Positions 3,001-55,560 of a DNA stretch of 64,000 bases are shown here, in pieces (position 1 is the stretch's first letter; every line of letters starts with the position of its first letter). The DNA is from Cenococcum geophilum (Eukaryota). A program made the position numbers and the translations under genes. The notes under the pieces were generated by a model. The model was given only the letters and a program-made list of their open reading frames with translations. It was not told the origin of the DNA and made no database searches. The stretch is taken from NCBI GenBank assembly GCA_050273025.1, contig CP158635.1:6820001-6884000 (forward strand), given 5' to 3'.

Positions 3001-6000
3001 CCGTTGTTTTGGTTATCTATTAGTTTACTAATTACTTAGGGTTCTTTAGCGAGTAGGTTATAAAGTTAAGGTTAAGGCGATTAAGTATTTTATAAAGTAT
3101 TACTATTACTGCTAAATAAACTAAAAGTCCCCTAGCCGATTTAAGTTTACTCTTAAAGATAACTATAACTTTAACTTCTGTATTATTGTTAATATTATAT
3201 ATTTTAGCAGTAAGCTAGTACTTTAAGTTATTAGCTTTTTAACCTCCTTCTAAGCCGTATGTTTTTTTAAAGGATATACTAGCTAGGAACGTATAGGATA
3301 CCCTTTAATTATACTAGATTAATGTCTACCTAGGACCTCTTAATTAAATCGTTTATAATATAGGAAAGAACTTCTTATTTATAGAGTTTTAATAATAGAT
3401 AAAGGCAATAGCAATTAAGGTTAAGGAAGTCCCTATTAAGGCATATAATAGTATTAGAAAAGTAGAGCGATATTACGCGCCATTACGCCGCGTATATAAG
3501 ATTATTTCTTTAGAACTAGAGGACGCTAGTAAAGAACTTACCTTATAAATGGCTGTTAAAGCTATTAATAATTCCGCTAGCCTAGATAGACTTATACCTA
3601 CGTTACTAGTCTTTAGCGCCTACCCTTAAATAACTAATAATTTTCTACTATTTCCTTCCGTTATATAATAGGCTAAGGCTATTTATAAGGTAATGAAGGA
3701 GGTATAATATCTCTACGCTATACGCTAGGTTAGTAATATACTAGGGATAAGAAATAGCCTAAATACCTTAACTACGCTTAATTTGCTACTCTAGTCTAAG
3801 GTACGCATATGGCGTAAAAAGGGAGGGTAGTTAGGCCTATATTAACTTATTATAATTAATAGTTAAACTTATATTATTTAGATGCCTTATAGACCCACTT
3901 AATTCCATTTAACTATTATTAAGCCTTACTATAAAGATAATAGTTCTAAGCCTTTATAGGATGTCCTAAAGGAAAACTATAATTAATATGCTCTAGAAGG
4001 CGACTATAATTCTAATATAATTATAGTAGAGGTTCCGCAATTATAACGCGGTAGAGGTTACCTAAAGGGATTATAAAATTGCTAATATCTTATTAATTTT
4101 AAAGAGTAATTTATTGCCGCTATTAAGAATAGAATTAAGTTATTAATGGCCTTTATAATAGCTAAGGAGAAGGCTAACTTTAAGCTCGCAAAATAGCTCT
4201 AAAAGGAAGGTTATATTATAACCCCTAAAGCTCCTTTCTAAGTATCTAATAAGTGGGAGATTGATAGTCTTATTATAAGAGGAGTCTTTGAATTTAAAAA
4301 GTATAACCCTACTAAGTTTAATAAAGTTTGCATCTTTAAGTTAAGAATGGTTAACGAGATTAAAGGTAAAGCTACTAACGCCCTATTTAAGAAATTAAGG
4401 CTTATTATTTAAGGTTATAATAATAACGGTAAGGAGGTAATTCTTACGCAATCCCCTATAATTTAATAAGCTAGTTAACGAGTTATTATTATATTAGCTC
4501 CCTCCTTAATAAAGAATAGAATGGCGGTCTATTTATAAGATATTACTTAGGCCTATACCTAATTAGAGACGCACCTTTAGCGCTTAATATTGGTATACCT
4601 TTTAGAGTAAATTCACCACTAATATCCCAAAGATATAATTATGGTTATGCTTAAGCTGTTATATGGAATTATAGAGGCAGGAACTTATTAGTAGGCTACC
4701 TATAGCAAGCACTATAAAGAGAAACTTTTAATAACTACTTCTATATTTAATTTATGCTTCCTTATTATAACTATAGGAACCCTATTTAGAATTGTCGGCA
4801 TATAAACTAATAATATAATTATCTTAGGAGACGACTAATTCTTAGCTCTTAAAGAAGATAAGCTAGTAAAGGTAAATCTTATAGCAAAGCTAAGGGAAAT
4901 ACTTAATCTAATAATACTATTACTTTTTAATAGATGCACCCTCTCCCTAAATAAAGATTATATTGCTTTACGCCAGAAGGGTTAAGGTAAGAAGATTAAC
5001 GTTATTAACGTTAATTCTTTAAAGTAAAGATATATAGAGTAACGCGCTTGCGGAGCTTATGTTGCTTCTATCTATTAACCTAAGGCTTTATTTAATCTTT
5101 TTATTACCGCCTAATACTAGGAACTAACTAAGGATAATATTCTTACCCTAAATAAACGTCTTTCCTAGTAAATAAACCATTTTAATTAGGGACTACTCTA
5201 CGTGCCTATTAATCTTCCTACTATTAAGCTCTTTATATTTATTAATAGATTATTTATAAATAATAAAGATTTTAGCTCCTAGTTAGGATATAAGATTATT
5301 ATCGCAAATAAATCTACTAAAGAGAATAACTTTATAATCTACGATAATTTTATCTATTAGAGCTTAACTAAGAGTAAATGCGTTACCTAAAGTGTTTTAG
5401 CGTTAGAGATATATAGAATAGTTAGCGGAGTTAATATAGTAATTGTAATTGGAACTACCCTAAAGATAATTATAGATTAACTTAAACTTTCCGTTATCCC
5501 TATAATTATATACACTAACTTATATTCCCTCTACAAGTGTTTAGTTAAACTCGGTACTATAAAGAAGAAGCGCCTTATAATTAATATTATAGCACTTTAG
5601 CAATCCTATAAGCGTTAAGAACTCTTTAAGATTTAATAGATTAATGGCTAAAATAACCTAGTAGATATAATAATAAAGGCGAACCTAAATAAGGCACTAG
5701 AGACGTTTATTAATACAAATACTCTATATATATAAGTTAAAGGTTAGGTTAAAAGGGAATAGAAGTATAATATTTTATAAACCCTAACTTAACTTAGCTA
5801 ATTAGGATTTTTTATCCCCGGGATAGAAAATTACTATTAGCTTGCTTACTACTAGCGCCTTAGCGGCCCTCTAAACAAGATATCTACCTATAACTCCTAA
5901 GTAAGAAAGCACTACGTGCTAAGAGGCAAACTTTAGAATAGCGAGACTTATATTATAATGGTAATAGTAAGTAAGGAGGATTAATATTTATTACGCTAGT

Positions 6001-6223
6001 CGAGCGGTATATATATGTAGATGGTAACTGTAAAAGAAGAGTTGCTAGTGTTGGGAATATAGGCAAGTTGCCGTCACGTGTCGCCGCGGCACTAGCGTGG
6101 CGAGGAGCCTTAAGCTCCTTGCCCTTTCTTAAGCAGGAGGGATATAGAACAATAATTATTATACTACCTATAACTTGTAGATATATAATATTACCTTGTA
6201 TTACTAACACTTATAAAACACGT
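1..6223. mobile_element. pogo/Fot1-like foldback MITE (left end outside window), interrupted near the tip of its right TIR by a Copia insertion
   Basis: 1-248 is a near-perfect palindrome centred at ~124 (cacttaataataaattct...agaatttattattaagtg). 236-300 resembles the arm of the MITE at 19547-19970. After the Copia TSD the terminus continues as cttat-aaaacacgt|TA (6210-6225); its reverse complement ACGTGTTTTATAAGCGAG resembles pogo/Fot1-type ends with a TA target. Confidence 0.7.
334..6209 (+). mobile_element. Full-length Ty1/Copia LTR retrotransposon, GalEa-type, RIP-inactivated (Copia-1)
   Basis: LTRs 334-514 and 6049-6209 (TGTTGG...AACA) with perfect 5-bp TSD CTTAT. CTAATTAGT follows the 5' LTR in place of a tRNA PBS. 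De-RIPed gag-pol (~872-5762) shows a C-x2-C-x4-C-x4-H knuckle (~2198), protease DTGAA-like motif, integrase, RT QTDD (~4805) and RNase H KRLMID (~5570). Confidence 0.93.
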
Positions 6224-7419: not shown

Positions 7420-8870
7420 GGAAAAGAGCTAAGGTACCTACCCTAGTAGAAGTAGTATCTACCTAACTAGTAGCAAAATAGGGCGTAAAACGTCTATAAG
7501 GTAGTCTTAGTATAGCTAGAGACCTATTTTAGTAGAGAATTCTAATTGTAGTAACTCTAGATAAAACGCCTTAAATATAAATAAAAGACGTTTATAAGTT
7601 ACTAGATAAGTTATAAAAGGGTTAATAATAGTATAATATAACTGCGGATACTTAAACTATAGAATAACACGCCCTTTATTTAATAGCCTAGACCTAAAAA
7701 ATATTAAATAATAGCATATAGGAACTAGTATAAATAATAAACTCGTAAAATATACTAATTAAAAAGATATTACCTTCTATATAAACTAGACCTAGCTACC
7801 CGCGTATATTTCTTAATTAGCTAATATATTAATATATAAGCGTAGAGCTACTATACTATTAGCCCTAATATAGCTAAATTATAAATAGCTACAGATAGTG
7901 GCTAAATTAGTATAATTAATATCTATAATATAAGAGATAATAGACCCTAGAGAACTATATAGGGATTACTATAATATACTATTAATATAGTAGAAGGCGA
8001 GTTAATAGTCCTAAGGGACTTTAATGCATACTATATAGCATAGGGAGGATAGTAGGCTATAGTAGAAGTATATGTAATATATTTACTTAACAAACTAAAA
8101 ATATAAGGCCTTACCCTAATTACTTTAATTAGCAAACCTACCTAAAAAAGGGATATTTAAGAGAGTATAATTAACCTAATATTTATATAGGAGGTATTTA
8201 TAAACTAGCTAGCATTCTACGGGCTAGAAAATATATAGGCAATAACTATAGATTATATACCTATACGGATAACCCTTAATATTAACGCCTTAGTGTAATA
8301 AACTTACTAAAGATACGCTGTATAAAAACTTAATTAGGAAAAATACTTTTAGGAAATTATTTATAAACTAGTAATAATACTAGATGTAACGCTAGAGGAT
8401 ATCTAAAGGACTATAAGTAACCGTTTAAAAGAATACTACCTAAAAGCCTAGCCTAGCAAACACGCCTAGCACAAATTGTTGCTAAAAGTAGTATAGCTAC
8501 TTATAGGTATAAGGAGGGTAAGGTAATAGCATAGCGTAATAGGTAGGGCCTACTACTATTAGAGCTATAAGGCCTTAAAGAATAGACTTAAAAAGATAAT
8601 ATAAAAGGAAAATAAAAATAGCTAGCGCCAATTCCTAAAGGAAATTACCTTAAGCCCTACTAAACTATATAACTAGGGCCTTTAGCGTATATTAAAGTGG
8701 AGTAGAAAAGCCGTAGGGGAAACGCTAGGAAACCCCTACCTATCTATACTCTACTAGATAGAATAAAACTATTAGTAGAGAGATTCTTTTTTAATATATA
8801 CTAAGCTAACCTATAGAATACTAGCTGCTAAGACTATCCCTAGGTTAGGGTTCTAAAATAAAATACTTAG
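7420..8870 (+). mobile_element. LINE (Tad1-like) fragment: end of ORF1 and AP-endonuclease part of ORF2, RIP-degraded, truncated before RT
   Basis: De-RIPed motifs RVCFLI (~7800), VLGDFNAHH..WGG (~8008-8048), S.IDL.F (~8165) and DH.PI (~8250), typical of APE domains. Boundaries approximate. Confidence 0.7.
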
Positions 8871-15500: not shown

Positions 15501-17350
15501 GTATAAAGAATAGAGACCCGCTTTTAATATTTTTAGTATAAGCCGTAAGCTTATTTCTCTTCTGCTTCTAGTAAGGCCTAGTGCCCTTAAGCTTCCATAT
15601 ATACTATACACTCTTATTTAGAACCTAGTTACCCCTAGTACTATTTATAAGATTATTAAGCTTATCTAAAGATAGACTATTTTTATTTAATTAGCCGTAA
15701 AGGAAGCGGGTGGCATTAAGGGCTTACTCTCTTATAATCTGATTAAACACGTAGTAGCGAAATAAAGGGTAGCGGCCAAACCAACTGTCCTAATACTTAA
15801 GTATATGCTTGGCATACGCAGCTAGGGTAACTATACGGCTTTGTGGCATATTAAAGTCGGCTTTACTATAGGGAAACAGAGTAGGAAAGGCGCCACGCAT
15901 AATAAAACTAGCTAATTGCTTAGAGAGAGGTGTCTGTCGCACAATAGGAACCTCTAGGCCTGTTTATAAGTCTTATTAGTATTAAACCTCGCGACCTAAA
16001 AGTTCTAATTTATTAAGGTTAGGTACTAGATTAGGAACCAAAGTATCTAGTATATTGTCATTAAATTCGCCATCTAGTACATTACTGCCAAGCTTAGTAG
16101 GTAGAGGATTAATAGCAAGAGGACGTTATATAGGAGCAGAATTATTAGACTTTAACTTATCAATATAAGGTAGCTAATTTAATATAAAGCTATTTTCGGG
16201 TAAGCTAGTAAGCCAGGTGCTATATATTTTAACATTACAATAATTAAAATAATTGACCTTTAGAAAGTAAAGCCATAGTAATATAGCAAAGCGCCTTATA
16301 GTATACCGCTTAGTAAACCGCCGACTTAGGTATTCGCCACCCTCTACTGCCGTAGGCCTTACGACTAGTATATCGAGTTTAGTAGGTAGCCATAGTAGCT
16401 AACTCTAAGTCTTTAGTATATTCTGGCCAAAGTAGTAAACATAGCCAGTATAGCGATGTTGCTGGCTATATACACGCACGACTTACAAATAAACGTATAC
16501 GCGCGCAATTAGAAGCTCCTCCACTGCGGTAAGTATAGGTAGGAAGCTAGAAATAGGCCCTAGATCAAGCCCATTGCTTTTACTAAATAAAGGAGAAAGG
16601 GTTAGATTCTTAAGGCTATTGGCATCCTTAATACAGGCTTTATATACACCTATATTATTACCCTCTATAACTAGGCCTATTTAGAACCACCGCTCCTTAC
16701 AATAACTGCATGTCTTTATACATTTAGCCTATAGTATACTCCTAAACTTCTTAATTCGCTCCCAATAGACAGCCGAAACAGGTAGTAGTATAGCCGTAGT
16801 TAAAGCTTACGGAGAGGAAGCTTGTGGAAAGGGAGCCTACTAAGAGGGAGCTTATAGAGAGGGAGCCTGCCAAGAGGGAGCTTATAGAGAGGAAGCCTAC
16901 CAAGAGGGAGCTTGCGAAAAGGGAGCCTGCTAAGAGGGAGCCTGCTAAGAGGGAGCCTGCTAAGAGGGAGCTTACCGTAAGGAAGGTAGTATTAGCAGCA
17001 GAGTAGGTATTAGCGGTAAAGCAGGCATAGAAGCTAGTTTCGGTAAGGACGCATTTAGGTTATTTAGAGTGCCTCTTCTACTATATAGAGCTTTATGTAT
17101 GGTATATAGCGGAGGAGTAGGCGAGTAAGCTTCACCCCGCCAATTAAGAATACGGTGCTCCCGTTATATTGCCCTAATTATCTTCCGCCGTTAAGCTATT
17201 TTAGGGATATCTTACTATTCTAGCCGCGGGGTAAAAAAACATCTTTAGTATCGGTTTTAGGTAAAGTATTTCGCTAGCGCTTTATAGGACGAATTTTAGT
17301 AGAACTAAGCTCTGCTTTCCGCCTATTTAAATTATATTTAGAGCCCTAGG
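12505..17350 (-). pseudogene. Helitron Rep/PIF1-helicase (RepHel) pseudogene
   Basis: De-RIPed minus-strand motifs: HUH motif EWQARGSGH.HGF (~15245-15285), Walker A GEAGTGK (~13808-13828), AAPTGVAAF, LILDEKSM, GDFHQLPPV, FPITLAFALTIHKSQGLT (~12700-12758) and YVAISRVK. No endonuclease domain seen after the helicase. Ends approximate. Confidence 0.88.
16825..16975. repeat. 15-bp minisatellite (~10 units of AAGAGGGAGCCTGCT) in the RepHel N-terminal region
   Basis: Visible 15-nt periodicity. It produces the spurious + strand ORF 16824-17006 and probably encoded QAPSQ-like repeats on the minus strand. Confidence 0.85.
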
Positions 17351-25664: not shown

Positions 25665-28600
25665 TATATAATTACAGCACCTGTTATACCAAACGCGTGC
25701 TTACGCGTTCGGTACACCAGGTACGCGTTTACGCGTTCAGTGCACTAACCACTCGCTTACGCGTCTAGTGCACTTATAAAGCACTAACTAATTAGGGGGG
25801 AGGTGCATTAGTATATAGACCACGTAGTCTACTTCATACAATTAACAGTCACCATCCAAATAAGCATATAATACTATATATATTTCGTGCCCGTGGATAC
25901 AACTCACTTATACTATTAAGTTAGTACAAACACTAATTAGTAAGCGCGCACAGATCAGCAATTACTTAACACCTCCCCCCGAGCGATACACACGACAGTA
26001 ACCACCTGTTTAGACTCCTAGTACGACCTACTAGAAGGTTAAAAGTTGGGGATTACGGACTTATCTCTAACTCTATATACTTATTTAAGTCTTAGTATAG
26101 TTTACTAAAAGTTATAGATGCGAATACAGACCTATATGGAACCCCTATCCTTAACCCCCTTAAACCTTAAACCTCTTCGGACCTTTTATAGAAACCCCCT
26201 ACCCTCCTATAAACCATTACGGACCCATTAATCGATTTTACGGACCGTTATAAGACCTCCCCCACCCGTTATAAACTGCTACCACCCACTATACACTATA
26301 CTACACTATAGTATAGCAGACATTAGCAAGCAAGTCAGCGAAGGTCAAAAGAAGTAGAAATAAGGCGTTAACGTTACGTCTACAAACAACGTTAACAACT
26401 ACATCAGCTTTAAAATCCTTAAATATAGACACTTTAAGCTTATAAATAACGACCTATGGGAGCAATATAAGGAAGACTTTGCGGACTTTACAGAAGCTAT
26501 TTTTAAGGCTTACAACCCTACTGCTATCCGTAACCTACGAACCCTTTTACGTCACTAAGGTATATGGGTTAAAAGGGACAAACGAGTTACTGTTATACGG
26601 TCTCTATATAATATACTACATAAAAAGGACTAAACGGAATAGACTAAAGAGTAGATTTTAGATCACATTAAAACCAGCGACCTCTTTACCTCCTTTAAAC
26701 TTAATAGAATCTCTAGCCTTATAGCTAACCTATTTAACCAAATTCGTTCTATAAACCTAAGTAGCATTAAAATTAATCTTACTAGCCAAAGTATACCTAA
26801 TACTCAAGTTACGGACCATAATACCCCCGTAACCTAAATTATGGATTATAATACCCCTATAAACCAAAATACGGACTAAATTACCCCTGTTATTTAAGTT
26901 ACAAATCTACAAGCCATATATCCGCAAGCCATAGATCCGCAAGTTATAGATCCGTAAGTTATAGATCTATAACCTACCTAAGTAAAGACCTATAGTAAGG
27001 AGCTAGCTAACCTAGCCAAGCTCTATACCAACAAATCCAAGTACAGCGGTAAAAACAATAACTTTAACTTTAAACTTACTATCTTTATAGACCTCTATTG
27101 GAAGGCTAATATTCCTAAACAGGAATTTAGCTAAGCCTACTCCACTATACTGCGCGGCCTAGCACTTAACCACTACTACACTAACCTTAAAAGTAACCCC
27201 CTTAGTGTTCCCTTTAATAAGCTATATAAAGCTATATATAACTACTTTAAAGGACCGGAATATAAGCGTAATATTCTTACCTAATAGAATGCGACTAAGC
27301 TACGGACCGTAATTAACAAGAACACTAAAAAATCGACTATAAAGTGCCTGCAAATTCTTATTAAAGACCTTTAGTACCTATAGCACGGCCTTAACACCAA
27401 GCTTTAAATAGATGACTTTCTATATAATAAACTTATTACAGCCTACTAGGAAGTAGAGCCCTACAAGTACGCCTACTATAAGCCTATAAATACCTTAACT
27501 GGCCTTATTAATGACCTACGCTCCTCTATTATAACGTATAAAGTCTTAAACCCACTAGGCAGCACTTAAGCCTTTATTGCGGATATTTAATATCCGCAAA
27601 TAGACTTAGACGTCTACTTTACAGACCACCGCTACCGCTAGCAGCACCTGTACCGACTAAGTCCCACCCGTAACCCCTATAGCAACCCCCGTATAAAAAC
27701 ATACCCCCACAAACAAACCAGCTAGAAGTGCTTCGTGTGCGGTAAGGAAGGATATTAGTCTATAAGGCATACCCAGGAAGAACGTAATAAGTCTAGGAAG
27801 AGACTTAATAGCCGTATTAACTAGTTTATTTTAGAATACAAAGGAAAGGAAGTAGAAGAGCCCCCTAATAAGTTAATAAAAGCCCTTATAATTAACTTTA
27901 ACTTAAACACTTAGGAATAAGAGACCTTAGAGACATTTTTAACCACTTTTAGACCTTTTACGGATAGCTAAGCCTTTAATATTACAACTATATTAGCCGA
28001 CCGTTCCTTTATACACTTAGTTGCGCCTAAAAACCATTCCGTAAGTACCTCTATTACAAATGTTATAAATCATAAGCAGGACCTATTTGCATATATTACT
28101 ATAGAACGCTATACCCCTAAGGAATTCTATAGTATTATAATTAATATAGGTACCTCTAAGAAGTCTACCGCAGGCTATAGATAATACCTTATATATAGGA
28201 CCACTACAAATAACAATACGGACATTAATATTACGCAAACTAGGGCCGTAAATGTCTAATTCGGCATCGGCTTAACCGCATTAATTAGATTAGTTAAAGT
28301 TAAGACTCTAATTAGCCTAGTTAACTTCTATATAGTAAAAGCGGACACCCCCTTCCTACTCTATCTTGTAGACATAGACAGGTTATAGGTATACTACAAT
28401 AATATTACGGACACCCTAATTGGCCCCGCAACTACCCTAAAAAGTAAGCATATTACCCTACTAATTATACAACAATTTAAACACCCGTTCCTTATATGGG
28501 GAGAGACTTTACGAACCTATATTTAGGAATCTTTCGACTATAACCCATACTACCTTACTAGTACGGAAATCCACCGCCTACACCGCCGTTTCGGCTACTT

Positions 28601-31600
28601 GTTAGCCGAAAAGCTATATAGAGTCCTTAAACGCTCTAAACATAACGACGTTAATAGGAAGGCAATTAACCACCTAACTAAATACTACTCCTTCTGCCAG
28701 AAATACGGACGTTCCCTAGGCTAATTTAAGTTCACCCTTTATAAGGACCTTAACTTTAACCACTTAGTATACGTGGACATTATATACATTAACGGTAGTC
28801 CAGTATTACATATAATTAACAAGGCAACCCGCTATTAAGCCGCCTATTAGTTGCAAAATATATCCGCAAAACATACTTGGGATATTTTACGGACCTACTA
28901 AATCAATATATACGTCGGACCTCCGTAGTATATTACCTACGACACCAGTAGGAACTTTATTAGTAAGGAATTCTAGCAGTATACTATGGCTATAGCTATA
29001 TTAACAAAAGCTGTTCTAGTTAAGGTGCACTAGTCTATTAGGCTTATTAAGCGAGCTTACCTAACCTTATAGAGAGCTTACTAGATTATTATAAACAAGT
29101 ATAAGGACATTTAAAAGGAACTGGCTTTATAGATGGCTATAAAAGCTATTAATGACACCGCTAGCCCCGACGAACTAGTACCCACCCTCTTGGTTTATAG
29201 AGCCTACCTAAGGATAAGTAACCTAGGCCCTTTTGCCCTATCTATTACGGAATAAGCAGCTATAATACGGAAGGCAATAACTAAAATAGTCAAGCTATAG
29301 GCCAAGTAAGCTATTAATAACGCCTTATACTACCGCAACGGACCTAACACAACCCCAGTATATGACCTCCCGCTTAACTCTAAAGTCCTTATATAGCGTG
29401 AAAGCGGTAGTTAGAATGGACCTTATTGTTTACTAGCCGTAGAAAACAAGACGTGCTGCGTATAGCTTCCTAGTAGGCCAACCAGCTTCAGAAGCACGTC
29501 CGTAAAACCCTACTTTCGGCCTAAAAACACCCATAACGTCAAACCAGACGAACTGGAAGCACCCATTAAACTAGACAAACCGGAAGCACCCGCCGAATTA
29601 GATAAACTAAAAGTACCCTTGCCTACCCTAGAAGTCCCCCAGAAACCCACTAAACCTACTAAACCTACTATAAAGCGTGGTTAAGGACGCCCCCAAAAGC
29701 ACCCCATAACTAAGAATACTATAATAGAAAATTACCTAACCTCCGTAGGAATATCCGCAAGGCAATCTCCGCCTATAGATATATTAGTTCTAGTACAGGA
29801 AACCCCATTTACGGACTTATAACGTAAAGAGATTAATAGACTACTTAAAAAGGGTGTCTTTGCGGTTATAATAGAGAAAGACGTCCCACAAGGCGTCCGT
29901 ATATTTAACTCACGCTTTATTAATAAGATTAAGCACCCTAGTACTAATAAAGCCTTTAAAAAATTAAGGCTTATTATATAAGCTTATAACAATAAGGGAA
30001 AGAACTTAGTCCTTATGTAATTACCTATAATTTAACAAGTTAGCTAACGAATTATACTTATACTTGCGCTGGGACTATAGCAAACTAAACCCGTAGCCCT
30101 ATACTTATAGAATATCTTATAAGCCTACGTGCAGTCTAATACCTACCTAAGTAGGGACATCTTTATACGACCACCCTATAAGCTTAACCTATAACTAAGA
30201 ACAATTTTATAGGTTATAAAACCTCTTTACGGAGTACCAGAAGCTAGGAACTACTGGTTTAAAACATACCACTAGTATTATATTAGTAAGCTTAAAATGG
30301 AACAGTCGACCTACAACCCCTACCTCCTATACAGCCCATTAAACGGCCTTAGTATTATTAGACTTTAAACAAATAATACCCTATTCCTAGCAGACTAGAC
30401 CTTTACAGACGCTAAAAAAACTAAACTATAAAAGACCAAGTTCTTAGCAAAGCTATAAGAGTAGTTAACTAAGTAAAATCTAATTAAGTTTAATGGAGGC
30501 CTAATTACACAAAAGGGCAACCTAATTAAGCTAACTTAGAAACGCCAAGCTTAAAACCTAAAGCTCATTACAGTAAAGCCTATAGACCTCACTAGTTCCC
30601 GCGAAGAGACCCGTAAGACCGTAAATATAAAGGACTAATACGCTGCACAGCGTGCAAAAGGCGCCTACATTGCCACAGTCTGCTAACCCGAATCTGCCTA
30701 CGACTTATCCTTTACGGCCCAAGCAGTAGATCCGTAAGAAGAAAATATTAAGCAGCTTAATAAGCGTATTTAGTAGCAAATTAATAATGCAGCAAGGGGA
30801 CTTACTTTTATACCACTAGACCTAAATTCCCTTAGCCTACTAGCATTTACAGACGCCTCCTTTACCAATAACAAAGACCTATTATCACAAATTAGCTTTA
30901 TAATTGTACTTATAGACTATAATTAGGACGTAAATATACTGCACTAGTCTTTAATTAAGTGCAAATAAGTAACCCATAGTGTACTAGCTTCTAAACTATA
31001 TATACTAGCTTATAGATTTAATATAGCAGCTACAATTAAATCAACGGTCTAGAAGATTCTATAACTGGAGCAGTTACCCCTAGTTTTATACACCAATTTA
31101 AAGTCCCTTTACGACTGCCTAGTTAAACTAGGTACGACATAAAAGAAGAGGCTTATGGTTGACCTAATATGCTTATATTAGGCCTATGAACGACGTAAGA
31201 TTACGGAGGTTAAATGGATCAGCAGCGGAGACAACCTAGCGGACGCTATAACTAAGGCAAAGCCGTATTAAGCCCTTAAAACCCTAATTAACATAAATAA
31301 GCTTAACCTAAAAGTTATAAAATGGGTAGAATGGGACTAACGGAGCACCTATGGTATATCTACGGCCCGTTAGAAGGCCGTACGGCTCGTTATACAGTAT
31401 AGGTGGAAAACGGTAGAAAGCTACAGTGGAACTTAGTAGACTTACGTAACCTGCCGAATTTTATAGGGTAGTTAAATTAACTAATTACGATTTTCCATCC
31501 CCGGGATAGAAAATCGCCATTGGTTCACTTAGCACTAGCGCCTTAGCGGCCCTTAAAATCTAACTTATAGCTCGTCTACTGCCCGTCAAAAGGCCGTACG

Positions 31601-32042
31601 GTTCATTTTACGGACCGTAAGCAGAACTTACGGCTAGCTTGGGGCACCGTTTGGAAGGCAGCCTAAACAGCACCTTAGGGAGATTTCCTATGTATTTTCC
31701 TTTATATTCTATGGTTTTATTAAAGCAATTACGGAGGCTGTATACAGGTGGTTTTATTTTTCAAATACTACCAGTATATAATTACAGCACCTGTTGTACT
31801 AAACGCGTGCTTACGCATTCGGTACACCAGGTACGCGTTTACGCGTTCAGTGCACCAACCACTCGCTTACGCGTCTGGTGCACTTATGAAGCACTAACTA
31901 ATTAGGGGGGAGGTGCATCAGTATATAAACCACGTAGTCTACTTTATACAATCGACAGTCACCATCCAAACAAGCATACGATACTACATGTATTTCGTGC
32001 CCGTAGATACGACTCACTCATGCTATTAAGTTAGTACGAACA
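25665..32042 (+). mobile_element. Full-length GalEa-type Copia element of a second family (Copia-3)
   Basis: 268-bp LTRs 25665-25932 and 31775-32042. TSD TGTAC/TATAC differs by one RIP change. CTAATTAGT follows the 5' LTR. Motifs CFVCGKEGCWS.RH (~27728), LHRRFGH (~28578), QTDD (~30365) and KRLMVD (~31145). Confidence 0.93.
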
Positions 32043-39729: not shown

Positions 39730-42700
39730 TGTTGGGAATAGGGCAAATTGCCGCCATGTGAGGCAAATTGCCGTCACGTGGGGCAAGTTGCCGTCACGTG
39801 TCGCCGCGGCGCTAGCGTGGCAAGGAGCCTTAAGCTCTTCGCCCTTCCTGATAGAAGAAAAATATATAAAAACAATTATTATACTATCTACGAACCGTAG
39901 CTATATAATATCCCCTTATGAGTCTAATACTAATTAGTGGTTAACTTTATAGTTATACCATAGAACAGCTAGGTATTTACTAAGAAGAGACGAGTTACTA
40001 TACCAGTGCTACTTGTATTAAGGGAAGCTATCTTTTAAGGTCAGAACTGGTCCTAAACCTTAAATAGAACTCTTTTATAAATCTAAGGATTTAAAGGCCA
40101 GAACTAGTCCTAAGCCTTCCCCAGATTATAAATTCTTGCGTCCATTACGCAGAATAACACGCTTTATAAGTCTTCGTGATTTAAGGCTAGAACTAGTCCT
40201 AAGCCCTATAATTATAAATACATATTACAAACGCGTACCAAATAATAATCCCTATACTACTAATATTCCCTTCCTCCGAAGATATAACTATGGCCACTCT
40301 AAACGACTAGAGAGACTCCTTACTACTAAGGGTAGCTATATACGCGAAACTTATTAATAAAGATTAGGATATATTTACCTTTAATATAACAACCTATATT
40401 ATAAAATAAGTTAACAGCTTTCTCCTATACCATATTCTATTCTATAAAGATAGCTACTACGCCGATTTATAGTTATGGGAATACTTTAGGAAGGATTTTG
40501 TAGGATAAACCGCCGACACCTAGGCACTTAGCAATGTTAATATTATTTAGGATTTTTAAGACTCCCTCTAAAGAAATGGGGTGTATGTTGCTAAGGATGG
40601 TAACCCAATTACTAGTAATATTTACGCTGTTCTTACTAGTATAGAAGAACTAGTATAGACGGAAGCTAAGATTATACGTTAACTATAGAAACCTAAAACT
40701 AACCTATATTCTTTAGAAGGCAACTTTAATTTAGAACGAAACCCCTAGAACGCTACTCTTCTACCTAGAGGTACTCTCCTACTTAGAGGTGCTTTTCCTC
40801 TACCTTTACTACCTCTAACTCCTCTATCCCAGCTAACCGATAAGCCTCTATTTTAAGAAGTTATGAATCTAATAAAGGTATATTTAGACGAAGAGAAGAA
40901 GTTTAGAGGAGAATTGTATAATATACTTGGAGTAAAACTATAGGTTTTTTATAACTGCTGCAATAAGGTCGGAATTTAACGCCACTAGTTCTATTATGCT
41001 TTCTCTGTTATATTAAAGGGACGGATGGCAACGTTTTATTACGACTATATTATAGGTAAAAACTATAGCTTTAATATAATGCTTTAGCTTACTAGAGCCT
41101 ACTTTAAAACTAATAAGAACCGCCAACTCTATATATCTAAATGGCGGGAGACTATATTCTAGAGAGTTATCGCTTCTAATCTAATAACGACTTACCTAGA
41201 GTGTCTTTAACTACTCTTTAATAAACTCTAGAAAATTTAATATAGTTTTATTAAAACCTACCAAAACAAGAATAGTTTAAGGGACTAGGTTATCTTAGTA
41301 TGCCGTAGCGTTCCTAAGTATAACTTGGCGCTATATAAACCTATAGATATATTTAAAGGAGTATATACCGAACTACGCTCCGCTATAGGTACTGTAATGC
41401 GAATATAAGAACCCTAATAATTCTATACTAAAAACCCTATTTAAACCGGGATTCTAGACTAATATAATTATAACTAGACTGATTAAATATATAGTGGCCG
41501 GAGTAGGGGATACGGTAAAGGGTATAATTAACGTTAACTATAAAGCAATTATGGAGGTCCTTGTGGAGGTTTATTTTGGAACAACTATTAGAAAAAGTAC
41601 TACGTTTATAAGAAGCCAAATTGCTAGTTAAATAGACACTCTCTTAATAAGCGAAAGGAGGTATATAATAAGTTCCGATAGAATATAAGAAACATTGGAA
41701 ATTGTAAGGTTACTATGGCCTACTTTTAAAGCTTTCTGGTCTAATATAAAGGCATAAAAGACCTTAAGGATAAAGTTAATAAGGCTGAACAGCTCCTTAT
41801 GGATATAGATATTGAGGACTACTCTCCCGACTAATACTTTACTAAGTATAGTAAGGTAAATAGCACATAAACCATCGCTATCCTTAATAACTAATTTACG
41901 TTCCATTCTGTTATAAAGTTAAATATCTTTAATGAGCTAAAGGAAAGTTCCGCGTTCTCCTTTAACGACAGATACTTAGCGAACGTCTTCTATAATATTA
42001 TGCTAGATACTAGAGCCGTAGGAGTATTTATAGTAGGAGAACCTCAAGTTTAAGCTCTTTAGTAGCTTAATAGCTCTGTTTAAATTAACTAATTAACGGC
42101 AGGCTAATATACAATTCGCTTTGGTAAGGGTACTATAATCTCTCTTAGCACAATTAAGGTCTAAACCCCATTAGGATGTATTACCTTCTATATTATTCCC
42201 GTAAATACCCTATTTCTATTCTATATCTAAAATATAGATAAATTAGGCGTTAAGCTTAATAACCTTAAGAATATACTTATTTAGGGAGATAATCGGGTGC
42301 CCGTTATACGTAAGTGGGGTCACCCTTAGTTGCTCCTCTAATAACCAGAAAGGAGCGTTGCTTAAAGTTACTTAACTAAGTCAGAGCTACGTTAACTACA
42401 CTATCATTTTAGCCACCCATCCGTTTACTAACTGCTTAGGGTTCTTTAACAAGCAGGTTATAAAGTTAAGGTTAAGGCAATTAAGCATCTTATAAAGTAC
42501 TGCTATTACTACTAAATAAACTAGAAGTCCCCTAGCTAATTTAAGTTTACCCTTAAAGATAACTACAACTTTAACTTCTATATTATTATTAATGTTATAT
42601 ATCTTAACGGCAAGCCAGTCCTCTAAGCTGTTAACTTATTAACCTCCTTCTAAGCCGCACGTTTCTTAAGGGATATATTAGCTAGAAACGCATAGGATAC

Positions 42701-45611
42701 CCTTTAGTTATGCTGGATTAATGTCTACCTAGGACCCCCTAATTAAATCATTTATAATATAGGAAAGAACTTCTTATCTACGGAGTTTTAATAATAGGTA
42801 AAAGTAATGGCAATTAAGGTTAAGGAAGTCCCTATTAAGGTATATAACAGTATTAAAAAAGTAGAGTAATACTACACGCTATTACGCTAAGTATATAAGA
42901 TTATTTCTTTAAAACTAAAGGATGCTAGCAAAGAAATTATCTTATAGATAGCTGTTAAGGCCGTTAATGATTCCGCTAGCCTAGATAGGCTTATACCCAC
43001 GTTACTAGTCTTTAGCGCCTACCCTTAAATAACTAATAATTCTCCACTATCTCCCTCTATTGTGTAATAAGCTAAGGCTATTTATAAAGTAATAAAGGAG
43101 GTATAACGTCTATACGCTACGCGCTAGGTTAACAATATACTAAGAATAAGAAATAGCCCAAATACCTTGACTACGCTTAATCTGCCACTCTAATCTAAAG
43201 TATAGGTATGGCGTAAAAAGGGAGAATGGTTAGGCCCATATAAACTCATTATAATTAATAGTTAAACTTACACTCTTTAGATGCCCTATAGACCTACTTA
43301 ATTCCGTTTAACCGTTATTAGGCCTTACTATAAAGATAACAGTTCCGAGCCTTTATAGGATACCCTAGAAGATACCCTAGAAGATGCCCTAAAGGAGAAC
43401 CACAATTAACGTGCCCTAGAAGGCGACTATAATCCTAATATAATTGTAGTAGACGTGCCGCAACTATAACGCGGTAGAGGTTGCCTAAAGGGATTACGAA
43501 ATCGCCAACATCTTATTAATTTTAAAAAGTAATTCGTTGCTATTATAGAGAGTAGAGTCGAGTTGTTAATAGCCTTTATAATAGCTAAAGAAAAGGCTAA
43601 CTTTAAGCTTGCAAAATAGCTCCAAAAGGAAGGTTATATTATAACTTTAGGAGCTCCTTTCCAAGCATCTAATAAGCAGAAAATTGACAATCTTATTACA
43701 AGAGGAGTCTTTAAATTTGAGAAGTATAACCCTACTAAATTCGATGGAATTCGCATCTTTAAGTTAAGAATAGTCAACGAGATTAAGGGTAAGGCTACTA
43801 ACGCCCCATTTAAGAAATTAAGGCTTATTATCTAAGGCTATAATAATAACGGTAAGGAGACGATCCTTATATAATCCCTTATAATTTAACGAGCTAGTTA
43901 GCAAGTTATTATTATACTAGCTCCCTCCTTAATAAAGAACGGAATGGCAGTTTATTTACAAAATATTACTTAGGCCTACACCCAATTAAAGACGCGCCTT
44001 TAGCGCTTAATACTAGCATATCTTCCGAAGTAAATTCGCCACTAATATCCCAAAGATACAATTATAGTTGTGCTTAAGCTACTATATAGAATTACAGAGG
44101 TAGGAACTTATTAGTAGACTACCTATAGCAAGCACTATAAAGAGAAGCTTCTAATAACTACTTCTATATTTAATCCCTACTTCCTCATTATAACCATAGG
44201 AACTTCATTTAGAATCGTCGGCATATAAACTAATAATATAATTATCTTAGGAGACAATTAATTCTTAGCTCTTAAGGAAGATAAGCTAGTAAAGGCAAAT
44301 CTTATAGCAAAGCTAAAGGAAAGACTTAATGCAATAATGCTATTACTCTTTAATAGATGTATCCTTTCCCTAAATAAGAACTCCATTGCTTTACGCCAGA
44401 AGGGTTAAGGCAAGAAGATTAACGTTATTAACGTTAATTCCCTAAAGTAAGGATACGTGGAGTAATGCGCTCGCGGAGCTTATGTTGCTTCTATCTATCA
44501 GCCTAAGGCTTCCTTTAATCTCTCTATTACCGCTTAATACCAGGAACTAATTAAGGAGGATATTCTTACCCTAAATAAGCGCCTTTCTTAGCAAATAACC
44601 CATTTTAATTGGGGACTACTCTATATATCTATTAATCTTCCCACCGCTAAGCTCTTTATATTTATTAATAGGTTGTTTATAAATAATAAAGATTTTAGCT
44701 CTTAGCTAAGATATAAGATTATTATTGCGAACAAATCTACCGGAGAGAATAACTTTATAATCCACAGTAATCTTATCTATTAAAGCTTAACTAAGAGTAA
44801 GCGCATTACTTAAAGCGTTCTAGCGTTAGAGATATATAGAATGGTTGGCGAAGTTAATATAGTAATTGCAATTAGAACTACCCTTAAGATAATTATAGAT
44901 CGGCTTGAACTTCCCGCTATTCCTATAATTATATGCACTAACTTATATTCCCTCTATAAGTGTTTAGTTAAGCTTAGTACTATAAAGGAGAAGCGTCTTA
45001 TAATTAATATCATAGCCCTTTAGCAATCCTATAAGCGTTAAGAACTCTTTAAGATTTAATAGATTAATAGCTAAGATAACCCAGCAAATATAATAATAAA
45101 GGTAAACCTAAATAAGGCACTAGAGACGTTCGTTAATACGAATACTCTATATATACGAGTTAAAGGTTAGGTTAAAAGGGAGTAGAAGGATTCTGTAGAC
45201 CCTAATTCTAAATAGCTAATTAGGATTTTCCATCCCCGGGATAGAAAATCGCTATTCGCTCGCTTATAACTAGCGCCTTAGCGGCCCATTTATCTTCGCG
45301 TTAACCCCTAACGCCCTTCTTCTTCTTCTTCCTTCCCTTAGCTTTATACCTTTATATAGTAGCAATCTATAAGTGTCTATAGATAGCAACTATAAAAAGA
45401 AGAGTTGCTAGTGTTAGGAATAGGGCAAATTGCCGCCATATAAGGCAAATTGCCGTCACGTAGGGCAAGTTGCCGTCACGTGTCGCCGCGGCGCTAGCGT
45501 GGCAAGGAGCCTTAAGCTCTTCGCCCTTCCTAATAGAAGAAAAATATATAAAAACAATCATTATACTATCTACGAACCGTAGCTACGTGATATCCCCTTG
45601 TGAGTCCAACA
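39730..45611 (+). mobile_element. Full-length GalEa-type Copia element (Copia-2), same family as Copia-1
   Basis: 200-bp LTRs 39730-39929 and 45412-45611 with perfect TSD TTAAT. Colinear with 334-6209 throughout gag-pol. Confidence 0.93.
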
Positions 45612-46799
45612 TTAATAGAATTTAGGAACTAGTAAGATAAGTTATAAAGGAATATTTAGATTACTAAAGAAATAAACTAATAAGGCATAAGCTATATAGA
45701 GGGCTATAACCTATTAAAATACTAGAGAGACTATAGGAGGTTATATTATAGGACTTTATCGTAAAGTTGCTAAAATTAAGAGATCCTATTACTAGGTAAG
45801 ATTATAACGCGATTTTAGTAATAGTAGATAAGCTAATAAAGTAGGGATACTTTATAGTATGTATAGAAGAAATCTTAGCGGAAGATATTACTAAAATCTA
45901 TATTAAAGAAGTATTTATAAGACATAGAGTACTAAATAAGATTATATTAGATAGAGATTTAAGATTTATAGCAGTATTTTAGGAGGTATTTTTAGCGGAA
46001 TAAGGAGTTTAAGCAGTAACTTCTATTATATATTATCCACAAATAGACGGTTAAACGGAAAGATTAAATTAGACATTAGAGTAGTATCTAAAACACTATG
46101 TTAATTATATATAAAATAATTGGGTATTATTGTTACTAATTATATAGTTTATATATAATATAACACCTTAAGAAGGAATAGGAATATTACTATTTAAGGC
46201 GAATTATGGATACGAGCTAAAAATATCGTTATTGCTATAATAAGTAAAGAAAACGAGTAGTATAGCTAAATAAAGAATGGAGATATTAATAAATCTTTAT
46301 ATAAACCTTACGGAAATAGCTAAGGTGGTATAGCAGAGAATAAAAAAGTACTACGATGCTAAGAAATCTAAGGGACTAAATCTTAAGGAGGGGGATAAAG
46401 TATAGCTACTATATAAAAATTTTAAGAGTTAACAACTAAGTAAGAAATTAGACTACGTTAGATTAGAACCTTTTAAAATTATAAAGAGAATTTTACTAGT
46501 TATATTTAAGTTAAACCTACTAGCTAAAATAAAGATTTACCCTATATAGTATATTACGATACTAGAGCTAGTATATAGGAATATTAAGCTACTAGTTTAC
46601 GAAGTAGATACGTATAAAGGATAAAAAGAGGATAAATAGTAAGTTATAAGGACGTTAATAATAAAATATGGTATAAGGTTAAGTGGATAGGCTATAATAA
46701 GACTACCTAAGAGCTACTAGAAAATTTAAAGAACGCTATAGAAAAGGTATAGGAGTATTAGAAGAGAAAAGGTTAGGTAGTATTAATAAAAAAGGATTA

Positions 46800-53148: not shown

Positions 53149-55128
53149 TCAACTCCCCCCTCTCACAGTCTTGTTCACTTGTTCTCTTTCTTCTCCTTCT
53201 AGTAATATTTCATGACCATCTCCCTCTTTAACGAACGTCCCAGCAATCGATCCTATGATTGCAATCCCGGCAATGAACCACCACGCCATCCCCACAACTC
53301 CGATCTTCAAGCCGCGACCAAATATCCACCCGCCAAGAATCGGGCCGACAGTCCTTGTCGCAGACGACACGCTCTGTCCAAGGCCATGAACAGTCCCTAG
53401 CACGCTAGGGTGCGGACAGCAGTTGTTCACGAGAATCGCAGTGGCCGGTAAAGCGAAGGTGCGTGCAAGGACTTGAATGAAGAGGATTCCCGTGATACCT
53501 GCCCACACGAGAATGCCTGCGACCGGGTAGGGCGCCTTGGTGGTTGAGGGGATCAGCGAAAGATAAGGCGCGAGAATGTATGCAAACGGAAAGAGCAAGA
53601 GGGAAAGCCGGTACGACAGAGCAGTTCCTAGTCTATGGCTGAGCTGCGGGTACAGTAGCAATTGCAATGTGATTCCGATAACTCCAAGAATTGCGAGCGC
53701 TAAACCGATGCGTGGTGGTGGGAGAGATAGGCCTCCGGTAAAATGGATAGGGCCGCGCTGGACATAGTTTAGGTGGTCGGGATGTGAAGGGTCGAACCGC
53801 GGCGTGGACAGGTAGATGTACCAGAGGCTGTTGAAGGTGCCGACATGCATGGCTAGGAGACCATGGGCAATGAGAGTGGTGATGACATTGCGAGTCCAGA
53901 TGCGGCGGAGAGGAAGCTTGCGTCTGCGAATAGGTAAGATGGGTTTATCAGAAAGCTGACCTGTCCGTGAAGTAGCGGATGTGGGAGTTGGCTGAAGCTC
54001 TAGGTCTGTAGAGAGACGCTCGGGAGCAAAACTATCGTCTCCAGGGAGAGCATTATAATCGTGTGATCTAGCTCCGCCGCAAAGTTTTCTGCGCAACCAT
54101 TTGCCAAAGCGGAGACCATAGTCGGGCCGTTGCTTCAGGATTTCGTCGGTTTCCTCAAGACCAAGAATAACAGCGCAAGCGGACGCGAAGAGGAAGATGG
54201 CACTCATGAGATTCGGGAGCGCGTATGGCCATTTGGTCATCCAATATACTCCATTTTTGCCGCCGAGTAATGAGTCAGGACCGAAAACGGATGGGTAACT
54301 CCCGACTGGATCAGCCAAAAGTCCACCAAGAACAGGACCAACGATAACTCCGATGTTAAAAGTCATTGGAAGAATAAGGAAAGCCCTAGACTGATATTTC
54401 TTTTCTTTGATAATCTCTGCAACCATTGTTCTCATGACTCCGATGTTTCCGTTTAATGCGCCGCCTAGGCATCGAAAAATGGTGGCGCTTGTGAAGCTTC
54501 TCGAAAAGCCAAAGCCTATCACGGAAAATGTAGTTCCTAACAGGCCAACTAACAAGACTCTTTTTCTCCCTCCCCATTCTGAATCGGAAATTCGGCCCCA
54601 CAACATGGCAGTTAGAAATTGCGAGCCCGGGAATGCTGCCTGCAGGATTCCTGCTTGAGAAGCAATAGTGGAATCCGAAAGGGAAGAATCAAATGATTTA
54701 AGCTGGTAGAAGAGGTACGCGCCGAGAGAAGTTTGAGTCAACGGCTCTGAAAGCCTTGCCAAGGTGAGAATGAGCAGCTGGTCCTTTCGAGGAAGTGAGG
54801 ACCATGTCACCGGTTTTTCTTTTGCAGCAGGCGCCTGCTCGCCTTCATCAATATGGGGTGATGCTGTTCCGGCTTGAATGCTAGTATTAAGGAGAAGGGT
54901 TTGTTCGTTTGGCCACCGCCCACGAGAATTGGCGGCGTCTATCTTCTCATCACTTGAAGATTGACTGCTTGAGTCGGAACTGTGCACCTTGGGGTAAATA
55001 TTTCCACCATCATGCAAGTATTCTTTTGAAGAATTGGTGCTCGTTACTACTGATTCGGGTTTTTGGGAATTCTTTGATGATGTTGAAGAGCTTGCAAGGC
55101 TGTCGCGTGCTTCATTTTCGGAGATCAT
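53149..55128 (-). CDS. Major facilitator superfamily transporter (YCR023C/ZIFL-like), 659 aa, single exon
   Basis: Long ORF with first ATG at 55128. MFS motif A WGRISDSEWGGRKRVLL, GALNGNIGV, G..VGPVLGG, and about 12 hydrophobic segments. Confidence 0.93.
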   Translation of the reverse strand: MISENEARDSLASSSTSSKNSQKPESVVTSTNSSKEYLHDGGNIYPKVHSSDSSSQSSSDEKIDAANSRGRWPNEQTLLLNTSIQAGTASPHIDEGEQAPAAKEKPVTWSSLPRKDQLLILTLARLSEPLTQTSLGAYLFYQLKSFDSSLSDSTIASQAGILQAAFPGSQFLTAMLWGRISDSEWGGRKRVLLVGLLGTTFSVIGFGFSRSFTSATIFRCLGGALNGNIGVMRTMVAEIIKEKKYQSRAFLILPMTFNIGVIVGPVLGGLLADPVGSYPSVFGPDSLLGGKNGVYWMTKWPYALPNLMSAIFLFASACAVILGLEETDEILKQRPDYGLRFGKWLRRKLCGGARSHDYNALPGDDSFAPERLSTDLELQPTPTSATSRTGQLSDKPILPIRRRKLPLRRIWTRNVITTLIAHGLLAMHVGTFNSLWYIYLSTPRFDPSHPDHLNYVQRGPIHFTGGLSLPPPRIGLALAILGVIGITLQLLLYPQLSHRLGTALSYRLSLLLFPFAYILAPYLSLIPSTTKAPYPVAGILVWAGITGILFIQVLARTFALPATAILVNNCCPHPSVLGTVHGLGQSVSSATRTVGPILGGWIFGRGLKIGVVGMAWWFIAGIAIIGSIAGTFVKEGDGHEILLEGEEREQVNKTVRGGS

Positions 55129-55560
55129 CAACGATTAGGGTGGAGGACCGGGGGGGCTGATAAGATTCTGATAAGATAGAAGCAGAGTGTAGGTAAAAGC
55201 TGGGGTTGGGAGGGGCGTCTAGAAGAAGTGAAAGAGATGTGAAAGAGAAATGAAGTGAGAGAAGTGTACAGAATTGAGCTAGAAAGCGGAGAATGTGCCA
55301 TGATTGGACTTGGGAGAAAATCGCCCGTTGCCTTCGAATGGGCCAGTAGGTTTCGCTGGCGGACTGGTGAAAAAGAGATGCAGCGTTGAATGCCGAGAGA
55401 GCCGTGATGCCAACGAGACACTCTTGTCATAATCAAAATCAACCCCAAAATTGACCTAAATCTACCCTATTATATAAATACGCTATAATTTATTAATAAT
55501 TCCTTCTAAACCTCCTTTATAAAGGTAATAACCCATATAATATAGCCTTCCTTTTCTTTA

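Follow-up and report, generated by a model that had tools for sequence, protein, structure and literature searches.

The stretch of DNA analysed here, called the window below, is a 64,000-nucleotide segment of the Cenococcum geophilum contig CP158635.1. It contains three Copia long terminal repeat (LTR) retrotransposons, all on the + strand, each of which carries a hairpin followed by a 19-nt sequence between the end of the pol reading frame and the 3′ LTR. This block of hairpin and 19-mer is the subject of the analysis. The elements E1 (about 300–6215, delimited by repeats and pairwise alignments) and E2 (39730–45616) form family A, and E3 (25665–32042) is a member of family B. E2 has 205-nt LTRs (5′ at 39730–39934, 3′ at 45412–45616) and E3 has 268-nt LTRs (5′ at 25665–25932, 3′ at 31775–32042). 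The E1 polypurine tract (PPT), GTAAAAGAAGAG, and 3′ LTR are at 6028–6211, with the LTR beginning TGTTGGG at 6049. E1 and E2 show identities of 0.75–0.92 in most 100-nt segments, whereas E3 compared with E1/E2 shows 0.25–0.68 in coding segments and 0.08–0.49 in LTR segments. An earlier note on this DNA, made from the letters alone, had placed the elements in two different GalEa families and described the LTRs of its third element as unrelated to the others, which agrees with these values. All three elements are heavily altered by repeat-induced point mutation (RIP) and display 90–124 stops in the pol frame. The start of the E3-type LTR in un-RIPped form reads TGTATAATTACAG, as found in the metagenome locus L074.

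The pol frame ends with TAG at 5760–5762 in E1 (final residues VKRE; the RNase H end motif VDIIIK, a RIP-worn ADxxTK, is at 5661), with TAA at 31338–31340 in E3 (final residues KWVEWD; ADAITK at 31239) and with TAG at 45183–45185 in E2, the last placed by reading frame and sequence; all are on the + strand. The motif begins 33 nt (E1), 28 nt (E2) and 138 nt (E3) after these stops, and the distances from the 19-mer to the 3′ LTR are 179, 124 and 222 nt, respectively. The block copy of E1 is at 5787–5892 (covariance-model match 110.1 bits). Its hairpin, 5796–5842, consists of outer arms at 5796–5802 and 5836–5842, an inner stem at 5806–5817 and 5821–5832 and a loop at 5818–5820, and is followed by a linker at 5843–5850 and the 19-mer at 5851–5869. 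The E3 copy (31470–31575, 110.9 bits) has the hairpin at 31479–31525 and the 19-mer at 31534–31552; the E2 copy (45205–45310, 108.1 bits) has them at 45214–45260 and 45269–45287. Both the 19-mer, ACTAGCGCCTTAGCGGCCC, and the hairpin core, ATCCCCGGGATAGAAAAT, occur exactly three times in the window and always on the + strand, the 19-mer starting at 5851, 31534 and 45269. Shuffling gives 0.01 matches on average, and none of 100 shuffles reached three. In a three-way alignment the 100-nt segments with the motif show an identity of 0.72–0.74 between E3 and E1/E2, the maximum for the whole element (coding maximum 0.68), and are flanked by unalignable sequence. The 86-nt pieces from the window fold at −21 to −24 kcal/mol, with z = −2.8, −3.2 and −1.5. 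Thus the hairpin and identical 19-mer noticed earlier after the pol stop of three Copia elements are found at all three sites, and the long stem-loop folds as had been described.

Assignment to GalEa was based on a Conserved Hairpin Site (CHS) after the 5′ LTR, the protein signatures KSRLV(I/V), QTDD, CQPEA and ADxxTK, and a C2C4C4H gag finger. The CHS of E3 is at 25933–25958 on the + strand, directly after the 5′ LTR and separate from the 3′ block. It reads CA followed by CHSeq1, CTAATTAGT, an 8-nt interval and CHSeq2, ACAGATCAG; E1 and E2 read ACTAATTAGT at this position. Leaders of the un-RIPped relatives L017, L047, L033, L035 and L070 show CA followed by CTGATCAGT and, further on, ACAGATCAG, which matches the form given in PMC5445492. 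RIP turns CTGATCAGT into the CTAATTAGT variant of CHSeq1 (window 25933–25941 and 39930–39938). The consensus of 36 homologues displays the GalEa protein signatures KSRLVVQAYND, LQTDDTLF, CQPEA and NPADAMTK, and the window copies carry RIP-worn forms of such signatures (KLRLII, TNN, CXPES, ADAITK and CFVCGKEGYXSIRH). By the 5′ CHS and the protein signatures, E1, E2 and E3 are identified as fungal GalEa Copia elements sensu Donnart et al. 2017. A Pfam search of the stop-read-through translations yields a sub-threshold rve match for E3 and none for E2, a weak result because RIP has worn the genes. According to PMC5445492, GalEa elements reach up to ~10% of the C. geophilum genome. Its supplement contains 14 C. 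geophilum GalEa families, with genome shares of 4.9% and 3.6% for two of them, and CHSeq1 in nearly all 14 reads CTAATTAGT or a variant of this.

Relatives were obtained by a protein search with the stop-read-through pol of E3, an alignment of 36 intact homologues and a metagenome search that gave 77 loci. A covariance model (R1) built from 10 block copies was run on the window and on these loci and shows 11 strong matches of 105–122 bits, three in the window and eight in seven loci: L007, L074, L047, L017 (in an upstream neighbour, L017u), L061 (two copies, L061a and L061b), L016 and L011. No credible weaker or diverged copies were found with this model in the other 70 metagenome loci. The check proposed earlier, i.e. 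to collect GalEa 3′ regions and build a covariance model, has thus added eight copies to the three in the window. L074 and E3 are 85% identical; of the 933 differences, 691 have the direction expected of RIP (C>T or G>A on the window side), and transversions account for 58. By sequence comparison L074 belongs to the same family as E3, and L061 to the same family as E1/E2. The metagenome is likewise identified as containing the window's fungus or a close relative, with copies less touched by RIP. The less-RIPped counterpart of the E3 block is L074:8128–8233.

The un-RIPped block reads AGCCAAT-CAG-GATTTTCCATCCC-C-GGGATGGAAAATC-GCT-ATTGGCT, then the linker CGCTTAnn, then ACTAGCGCCTTGGCGGCCC. The module is ~100 bp long and consists of a 47-nt near-perfect hairpin, an 8-nt variable linker and the GC-rich 19-mer; the hairpin has a 7-bp outer stem (AGCCAAU/AUUGGCU), a 3 × 3 internal loop, a 12–14-bp inner stem and a 3-nt loop. 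The window versions depart from this sequence at CpA/TpG sites, which are RIP targets, and the 74-nt feature of the window reads as a RIP-worn copy of a ~100-bp accessory non-coding module. Only one site in the 19-mer is open to RIP, namely the TG of TTGG, and the three window copies and L017u have the mutated form TTAG. Part of the invariance of the 19-mer within the window thus arises because RIP has nothing else to hit. Among un-RIPped copies the 5′ arm of the outer stem varies (AG-, AA-, GA-CCAAT) and the 3′ arm never does. The un-RIPped relatives of E3 have GACCAAT opposite ATTGGCT, with a wobble and a mismatch, and RIP later altered both arms. The letters from which covariation of the outer stem had been proposed (AGCTAAT/ATTAGCT vs AACTAAT/ATTGGTT) are present, but the un-RIPped relatives of E3 reveal this covariation as a RIP artefact. 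A further candidate, a second CHSeq1 palindrome at the hairpin base (CTAATTAG), was rejected. Un-RIPped copies read CCAATCAG here, not CTGATCAG, and RIP converts both of these into CTAATTAG.

In the 10-copy alignment 96.8% of the cells are paired, vs 27–54% in controls with slid partners. Four stem pairs change on both sides. In three of them RIPped copies have U-A for C-G or A-U for G-C, which is what RIP does to the two arms of any palindrome. The remaining one, at columns 37–43, is a C-G to G-C transversion found in L016 and L061b and is a compensatory pair that RIP does not produce. Folding energies of the un-RIPped 86-nt pieces are −31 to −45 kcal/mol, with z between −2.9 and −6.0. Conservation is uneven along the block: the inner hairpin, the CCAAT pentamers and the 19-mer together comprise 56 sites, of which 3 are variable among five un-RIPped sense copies, vs 15 variable sites among the 29 others of the block (Fisher p about 2e-6, for partitions drawn after viewing the alignment). 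The three variable core sites are one loop base and the C-G to G-C pair. When the inverted L011 copy is added, 7/56 core sites and 16/29 other sites vary. This uneven conservation suggests constraint. The Rfam search that had been called for matched no known family, with no matches in the window at the gathering score and none up to an E-value of 1 in five un-RIPped loci.

The distribution of the block was determined in 35 metagenome loci with at least 100 nt after pol; some of these are near-duplicates, and a few have only 120–190 nt to inspect. Six of the 35 carry the block downstream of their own pol (L007, L074, L047, L061, L011 and L016, the L016 copy being 1.24 kb away), and 29 GalEa 3′ regions are without it. 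Complete 3′ untranslated regions (UTRs) are as short as 41–51 nt in L029, L033 and L015. A general requirement for a hairpin in GalEa 3′ UTRs was also considered and rejected. The block-less UTRs of 28 loci hold no comparable hairpin, their best stems having 3–8 pairs vs 12–13 in carriers.

A quick IQ-TREE maximum-likelihood tree of the reverse transcriptase–RNase H region of pol (50 rows, with Shimodaira–Hasegawa-like approximate likelihood ratio test, SH-aLRT, support) distributes eight carriers over four clades, on either side of the deepest split. Carrier clades have block-less sisters (L055; L023/L017; L046/L027; L012/L013), and well-supported branches force at least five gains or losses of the block. 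L074 carries a 179–185-nt insert relative to L023 and L017, and the pairs L061/L055 and L047/L046 differ in the entire initial part of the 3′ UTR, where one sequence takes the place of another. When L074/L023, L061/L055 and L047/L046 are compared, the borders of the inserts show neither a target-site duplication nor terminal inverted repeats. RNA-library contigs of the sequencing run X15 include forms that skip 207–209 nt across the block, and therefore block-less variants of the E3 family are confirmed. The nearest relatives of four carrier lineages lack the block; it has therefore passed between co-resident elements. Thus the block is an accessory module shared horizontally by co-resident GalEa lineages of one fungus and is not a general GalEa feature. 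The earlier note had allowed that the motif might be restricted to two families through recent recombination. The pattern is indeed one of horizontal exchange, but the restriction to two families does not hold, as the block is found in at least four lineages.

The 3′ UTR of the E3 family has two copies of a ~21-nt unit, ACGGCCCGTYRRAAGGCCGTA, a small GGCC...GGCC hairpin (window 31361–31390 and 31577–31610; also in L074, L023 and L017). The block-bearing insert is situated exactly between the two ACGGCCCGTYRRAAGGCCGTA copies.

Three families have two or three separate block copies each, namely E1/E2/L061a, E3/L007/L074 (L007 and L074 are 92% identical) and L047/L017u, and the block has therefore been carried through retrotransposition. 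E2 also displays a mosaic 3′ end. In the stretch from block to PPT (45288–45411, + strand) the first ~80 nt are L017u/L061b-like and the last ~70 nt family-A-like, with identical columns of 55/80 and 50/70 to L017u and L061b and 52/75 to E1. The identity of E1 and E2 drops to 0.32–0.44 in this stretch.

The block is found between the pol stop and R in five of five Copia contexts. In L011 it is inverted and lies within the U3 of the 3′ LTR at +22 to +105, followed by CACGTG at ~+180 and a TATA box, TATATATA, at ~+225. L061b is also situated in a different setting, and the 60 nt downstream of it resemble Copia 3′ UTRs. The L061 locus begins with an intact 775-aa hAT-type transposase open reading frame (ORF) at L061:1–2328, open at its 5′ end and with a C-terminal dimerisation-like motif. 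After this ORF come a GTGTCACGGG...CCCTGTGACAC hairpin, repeat arrays of CGGCAATCTG and CTGCAATATGT, and the block copy. The hAT appears to interrupt a family-A Copia, the pol of which resumes near position 2985. L016:6230–6400 is a long foldback with ~60-nt arms (TAACGTAAGTCACCGGGTTATAACGGTCCACCTAGTTATGACGGAA and its complement) after a truncated Copia pol and resembles a small inverted-repeat insertion. Short repeats of the GGCAAT/TTGCC type recur in GalEa 3′ UTRs and U3, often near the block, e.g. in the L019/L020 3′ UTR, the L011 3′ UTR and U3, L017:590–660 and the E2 LTR (window 39740–39800). Their forms are GGCAATGTAC with ~10 tandem occurrences, CGGCAATCT and GGCAAATTGCC. Several block-less 3′ UTRs show a CCAAT word soon after the stop, such as CAGCCAATCGAGG in L019/L020 and CCAATGAGAGCATTGG in L064.

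Parts of L074 are contained in 20 sequencing runs from 12 studies, the best being a root metagenome with 0.69 of the sampled words, and four runs were mapped on L074:7300–8800. The raw RNA reads of run X21 have a depth of 11–18 on the block only and none on pol, with first mates on the + strand at 17.7 vs 1.8. All 32 of the 32 reads that cover position 8146 show G (CCAATCAGG), and the reads leave the reference just outside 8138–8184. These reads therefore represent the hairpin unit in another context, without the 19-mer. DNA contigs of run X7 show depths of 38,515–84,625 on the block vs 406–1,656 on the E3-specific flank, which are not usable as copy number because of the 90% likeness cut-off, the small number of RIP sites and the sharing of the block among families. 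Among viral contigs there are no matches to the RIPped 19-mer and none to the un-RIPped hairpin.

To our knowledge, fungal GalEa elements are the one large Copia group in which the start of reverse transcription is unexplained. The earlier note had stated that they lack a canonical tRNA primer-binding site (PBS), which is also stated in PMC5445492, and had proposed that the 19-mer is the distal half of a bipartite PBS that pairs with the D arm of tRNA-Leu, with the hairpin aiding priming. The Ty3 element does use a segment in its 3′ U3 (PMC5371799), and the block has the expected 3′ position and an invariant 19-mer sequence. Nevertheless such a role is very improbable. The tRNA-Leu-like word CTAAGGCGC in the complement of the 19-mer depends on a base changed by RIP, and the ancestral complement is CCAAGGCGC. 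Most GalEa elements with a normal 5′ CHS have no block; 29 of the 35 GalEa 3′ regions, including those of CHS-bearing elements and the 41–51-nt 3′ UTRs, do without it, and therefore it is not a general priming element. The comparison to the Ty3 arrangement is further contradicted by close sisters of carriers, even sister copies within one family, that differ in the presence of the block. The 19-mer is inverted and partly changed in L011, and the transcribed X21 copy is without it. ARAGORN finds no tRNA genes in the window and none in 24 loci. Cyclisation of the genome by pairing of the 19-mer with its own 5′ LTR and leader was another candidate, and was rejected: shuffled 19-mers pair at least as well in 156 of 200 cases for L074 and in 16 of 200 for L047. 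A false lead is thereby removed, i.e. the 3′ element is not the missing GalEa primer site, and both the covariation and the tRNA likeness are RIP artefacts. This is a caution for motif hunting in RIP-mutated genomes.

The explanation favoured here, with a rough probability of 0.4, is that the hairpin works in RNA form, in cis, within the 3′ end of its transcript, and that the 19-mer is a second site separable from it, the whole being accessory and passed between co-resident elements by recombination. It is favoured because the block is situated between the pol stop and R in Copia carriers, because one compensatory pair is seen and the hairpin survives inversion, and because the block has the same orientation and place in three families, an outcome to be expected from template switching. 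The module sits between the pol stop and the PPT or, in one lineage, in U3, a part of the element that the genomic RNA has at its 3′ end only. Transfer would most likely occur by template switching between co-packaged RNAs, which preserves position and orientation, and after transfer the module would be carried along by retrotransposition. The hairpin may bind a host or Gag-type protein for survival or export of the transcript, or may pair two RNAs for co-packaging, and the 19-mer may be a separate sequence-specific site, not a primer-binding site. A bolder form of this idea, doubtful and ranked below the two alternatives that follow, is a portable, host-specific RNA hairpin cassette traded among unrelated families (several Copia lineages, perhaps hAT). 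Having it in common would aid RNA survival or co-packaging; co-packaging would in turn promote recombination between families and may have contributed to the growth of GalEa to about a tenth of a Cenococcum-type genome.

Several observations weigh against a cis-acting RNA hairpin, and some of them fit two other explanations better. All block loci but one come from two related contig-name series, tied by pol identity to the window's fungus, and the sampled block-bearing copies are mostly degenerate (longest ORFs 78–195 aa in L007, L074 and L047). Only one compensatory event outside RIP is seen, and templated correction in a DNA palindrome could yield it without RNA selection. The hairpin is preserved by the inversion in L011, but the RNA then carries the complement of the 19-mer. 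The 10 positions of the CCAAT pentamers never vary in un-RIPped copies, while two outer-stem positions adjoining the 5′ pentamer change uncompensated, and therefore recognition of a DNA CCAAT-box sequence fits better here than a stem. Both arms of the block read AGCCAATCAG or AGCCAATAGC, which we take to fit the CCAAT-box consensus. These features point to a DNA regulatory cassette, in which two inverted CCAAT boxes, presumably bound by the fungal CCAAT-binding complex, flank a central palindrome, with a GC-rich box next to them. This would be a portable promoter or enhancer native to GalEa U3, as in L011, and other families would have copied it into their 3′ UTRs, where its target could be the promoter of the adjacent LTR or circular DNA forms, or where it could itself be an antisense promoter. 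The L011 block is in a promoter position, ~120–200 nt upstream of the TATA box. The L016 copy is at a contig end, and the reverse complement of this tail shows a TATA-like run, TATATATATATAA, ~105 nt beyond the block. The occurrence of the block in both orientations is also in accord, as are 19-mer-like words beside CACGTG in U3, CTAGCGCCGCGGCG in family A (12/14; window 39802–39815 and 45484–45497, minus strand) and CTAGCGCTTGGCG in L042 (positions 90 and 5371). However, these words are not enriched: 137 fuzzy matches compare with 63–169 for shuffled motifs, and the 8-mer CTAGCGCC has 20 occurrences vs 14.4 expected, 11 of the 20 being the block itself. An enriched 19-mer-like promoter word, above shuffled motifs or above chance for the 8-mer, was thus rejected as a candidate. 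A promoter position of the CCAAT sequence is seen in U3 of L011, perhaps also in the tail of L016, and in none of the three window copies. In three of four lineages the block lies in the 3′ UTR, 124–222 nt upstream of the 3′ LTR only, where a promoter element would be of no use to the 5′ LTR, the source of the genomic RNA. Further, the C-G to G-C exchange, with both arms altered together, is a prediction of base pairing and not of two half-sites for a dimeric protein. Recognition by the CCAAT complex is putative. The DNA cassette, the main rival of the favoured explanation, is judged rather improbable, though ranked above the traded RNA cassette.

The other explanation, which stands next in probability to the favoured one but is still rather unlikely, is a neutral passenger: a fragment of another repeat (LTR U3, hAT 3′ end or small foldback) that landed in an insertion-tolerant 3′ UTR or U3, was amplified with its carriers and was shuffled by recombination. 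Its conservation would then reflect recent spread, few RIP targets or constraints of the source repeat itself. The accessory status, with 29/35 regions lacking the block and complete 3′ UTRs of 41–51 nt, agrees with this, as do the two orientations and the variable position (28–138 nt after the stop, or in U3). The single RIP-prone TpG of the 19-mer, mutated in the window copies and L017u, would explain the invariance in the window. The unit also exists outside Copia 3′ UTRs: L061b lies 248 nt downstream of the stop of the intact hAT transposase ORF, and the transcribed X21 hairpin has other flanks and no 19-mer. Of a foldback element or miniature inverted-repeat transposable element (MITE), terminal inverted repeats with target-site duplications and copies outside other transposable elements would be expected; the hairpin is itself an inverted repeat, and other contexts are seen in L061b, L016 and the X21 reads. 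Short GGCAAT-type repeats accompany the block in several of its contexts. Run X7 has a greater depth over the block than over the E3-specific flank, but this contrast is confounded by the 90% read likeness needed, by sharing among families and by the scarcity of RIP sites. On the other hand, linkers and flanks differ by ~4–11%, yet the 19-mer is unchanged in five sense copies and the hairpin shows only the compensatory pair and a loop base, which is uneven for neutral decay. The borders in the three with/without pairs display neither target-site duplication nor terminal inverted repeats, and orientation and core borders are the same in three families. If the block is a passenger, it marks the 3′ UTR and U3 as an insertion-tolerant cargo bay. 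If it is functional, it would offer an accessible case of retrotransposons that take up and exchange a cis element adapted to their host.

Structured elements between the last ORF and the 3′ LTR are known in retroviruses, e.g. the constitutive transport element (CTE) of Mason-Pfizer monkey virus and the RNA stability element (RSE) of Rous sarcoma virus, which are accessory to the replication chemistry and depend on host proteins. The block resembles these in its place in the genome and in having a long hairpin with a symmetric internal loop. However, it has no sequence likeness to them and is also found inverted and possibly beside a DNA transposon gene. Two invariant CCAAT pentamers, and the L011 location 120–200 nt upstream of a TATA box, recall promoter elements of the fungal CCAAT-binding (Hap) complex, from which the block differs by its 3′ UTR position in most carriers and by binding that is putative. 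Like dimer initiation site hairpins (a class discussed in PMC5445492), the block is self-complementary and could pair two genomic RNAs. If several families had such a hairpin in common, their RNAs would be co-packaged more readily, and recombination of the kind seen around the block would be promoted. The dimer initiation site has its palindrome in the loop and lies in the 5′ leader, whereas the block has a 3-nt loop, a palindrome that is the stem, and a position at the 3′ end.

The closest comparison is to the CHS and extended CHS, which in PMC5445492 are also non-coding GalEa hairpins better conserved than LTRs, the extended form being common to different families in one species. The CHS is itself present in block-carrier elements. 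All fungal GalEa elements have the CHS, immediately downstream of the 5′ LTR where a PBS would be, and its palindrome takes in the last base of the LTR (PMC5445492); the block lies after pol or in U3, is missing from most GalEa elements and has another sequence, the 19-mer included. Its position 28–138 nt after the pol stop or in U3, and its un-RIPped base CCAATCAG, show that it is not a CHS. The 3′ half of the Ty3 bipartite PBS (PMC5371799) is likewise a conserved sequence in the 3′ untranslated RNA of an LTR retrotransposon; the Ty3 segment pairs with the primer tRNAiMet and is present in every Ty3, but the block is optional and its tRNA resemblance is a RIP artefact. The words ‘UTR’ and ‘untranslated’ are both missing from the main text of PMC5445492. 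No published description of a GalEa 3′ element was found in the literature searched by full text, a limited library, and the earlier note had likewise been aware of none. Thus different families of one host have in common not only the published 5′ hairpin but also this non-coding module, with direct signs of horizontal exchange and mosaic 3′ ends.

Other features of the window do not involve the block. A tandem array with a 15-nt unit (consensus near GAGCCTGCTAAGAGG) and ~15 copies is found at 16773–16997, and an in-frame reading of it could give a coding repeat. A weak relic of another hAT-type transposase at 18642–19517 matches the L061 protein over 312 residues with 28% identity (tblastn, E-value = 2.5e-17). 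The GC-rich end of the window carries an intact 660-codon MFS transporter gene of the host at 53149–55131 on the minus strand, by which the fungus is assigned to Gloniaceae, the family that includes Cenococcum. The transporter shows 86% identity to a sequence of Glonium stellatum, 73% to one of Lepidopterella palustris and 92–95% to unnamed proteins.

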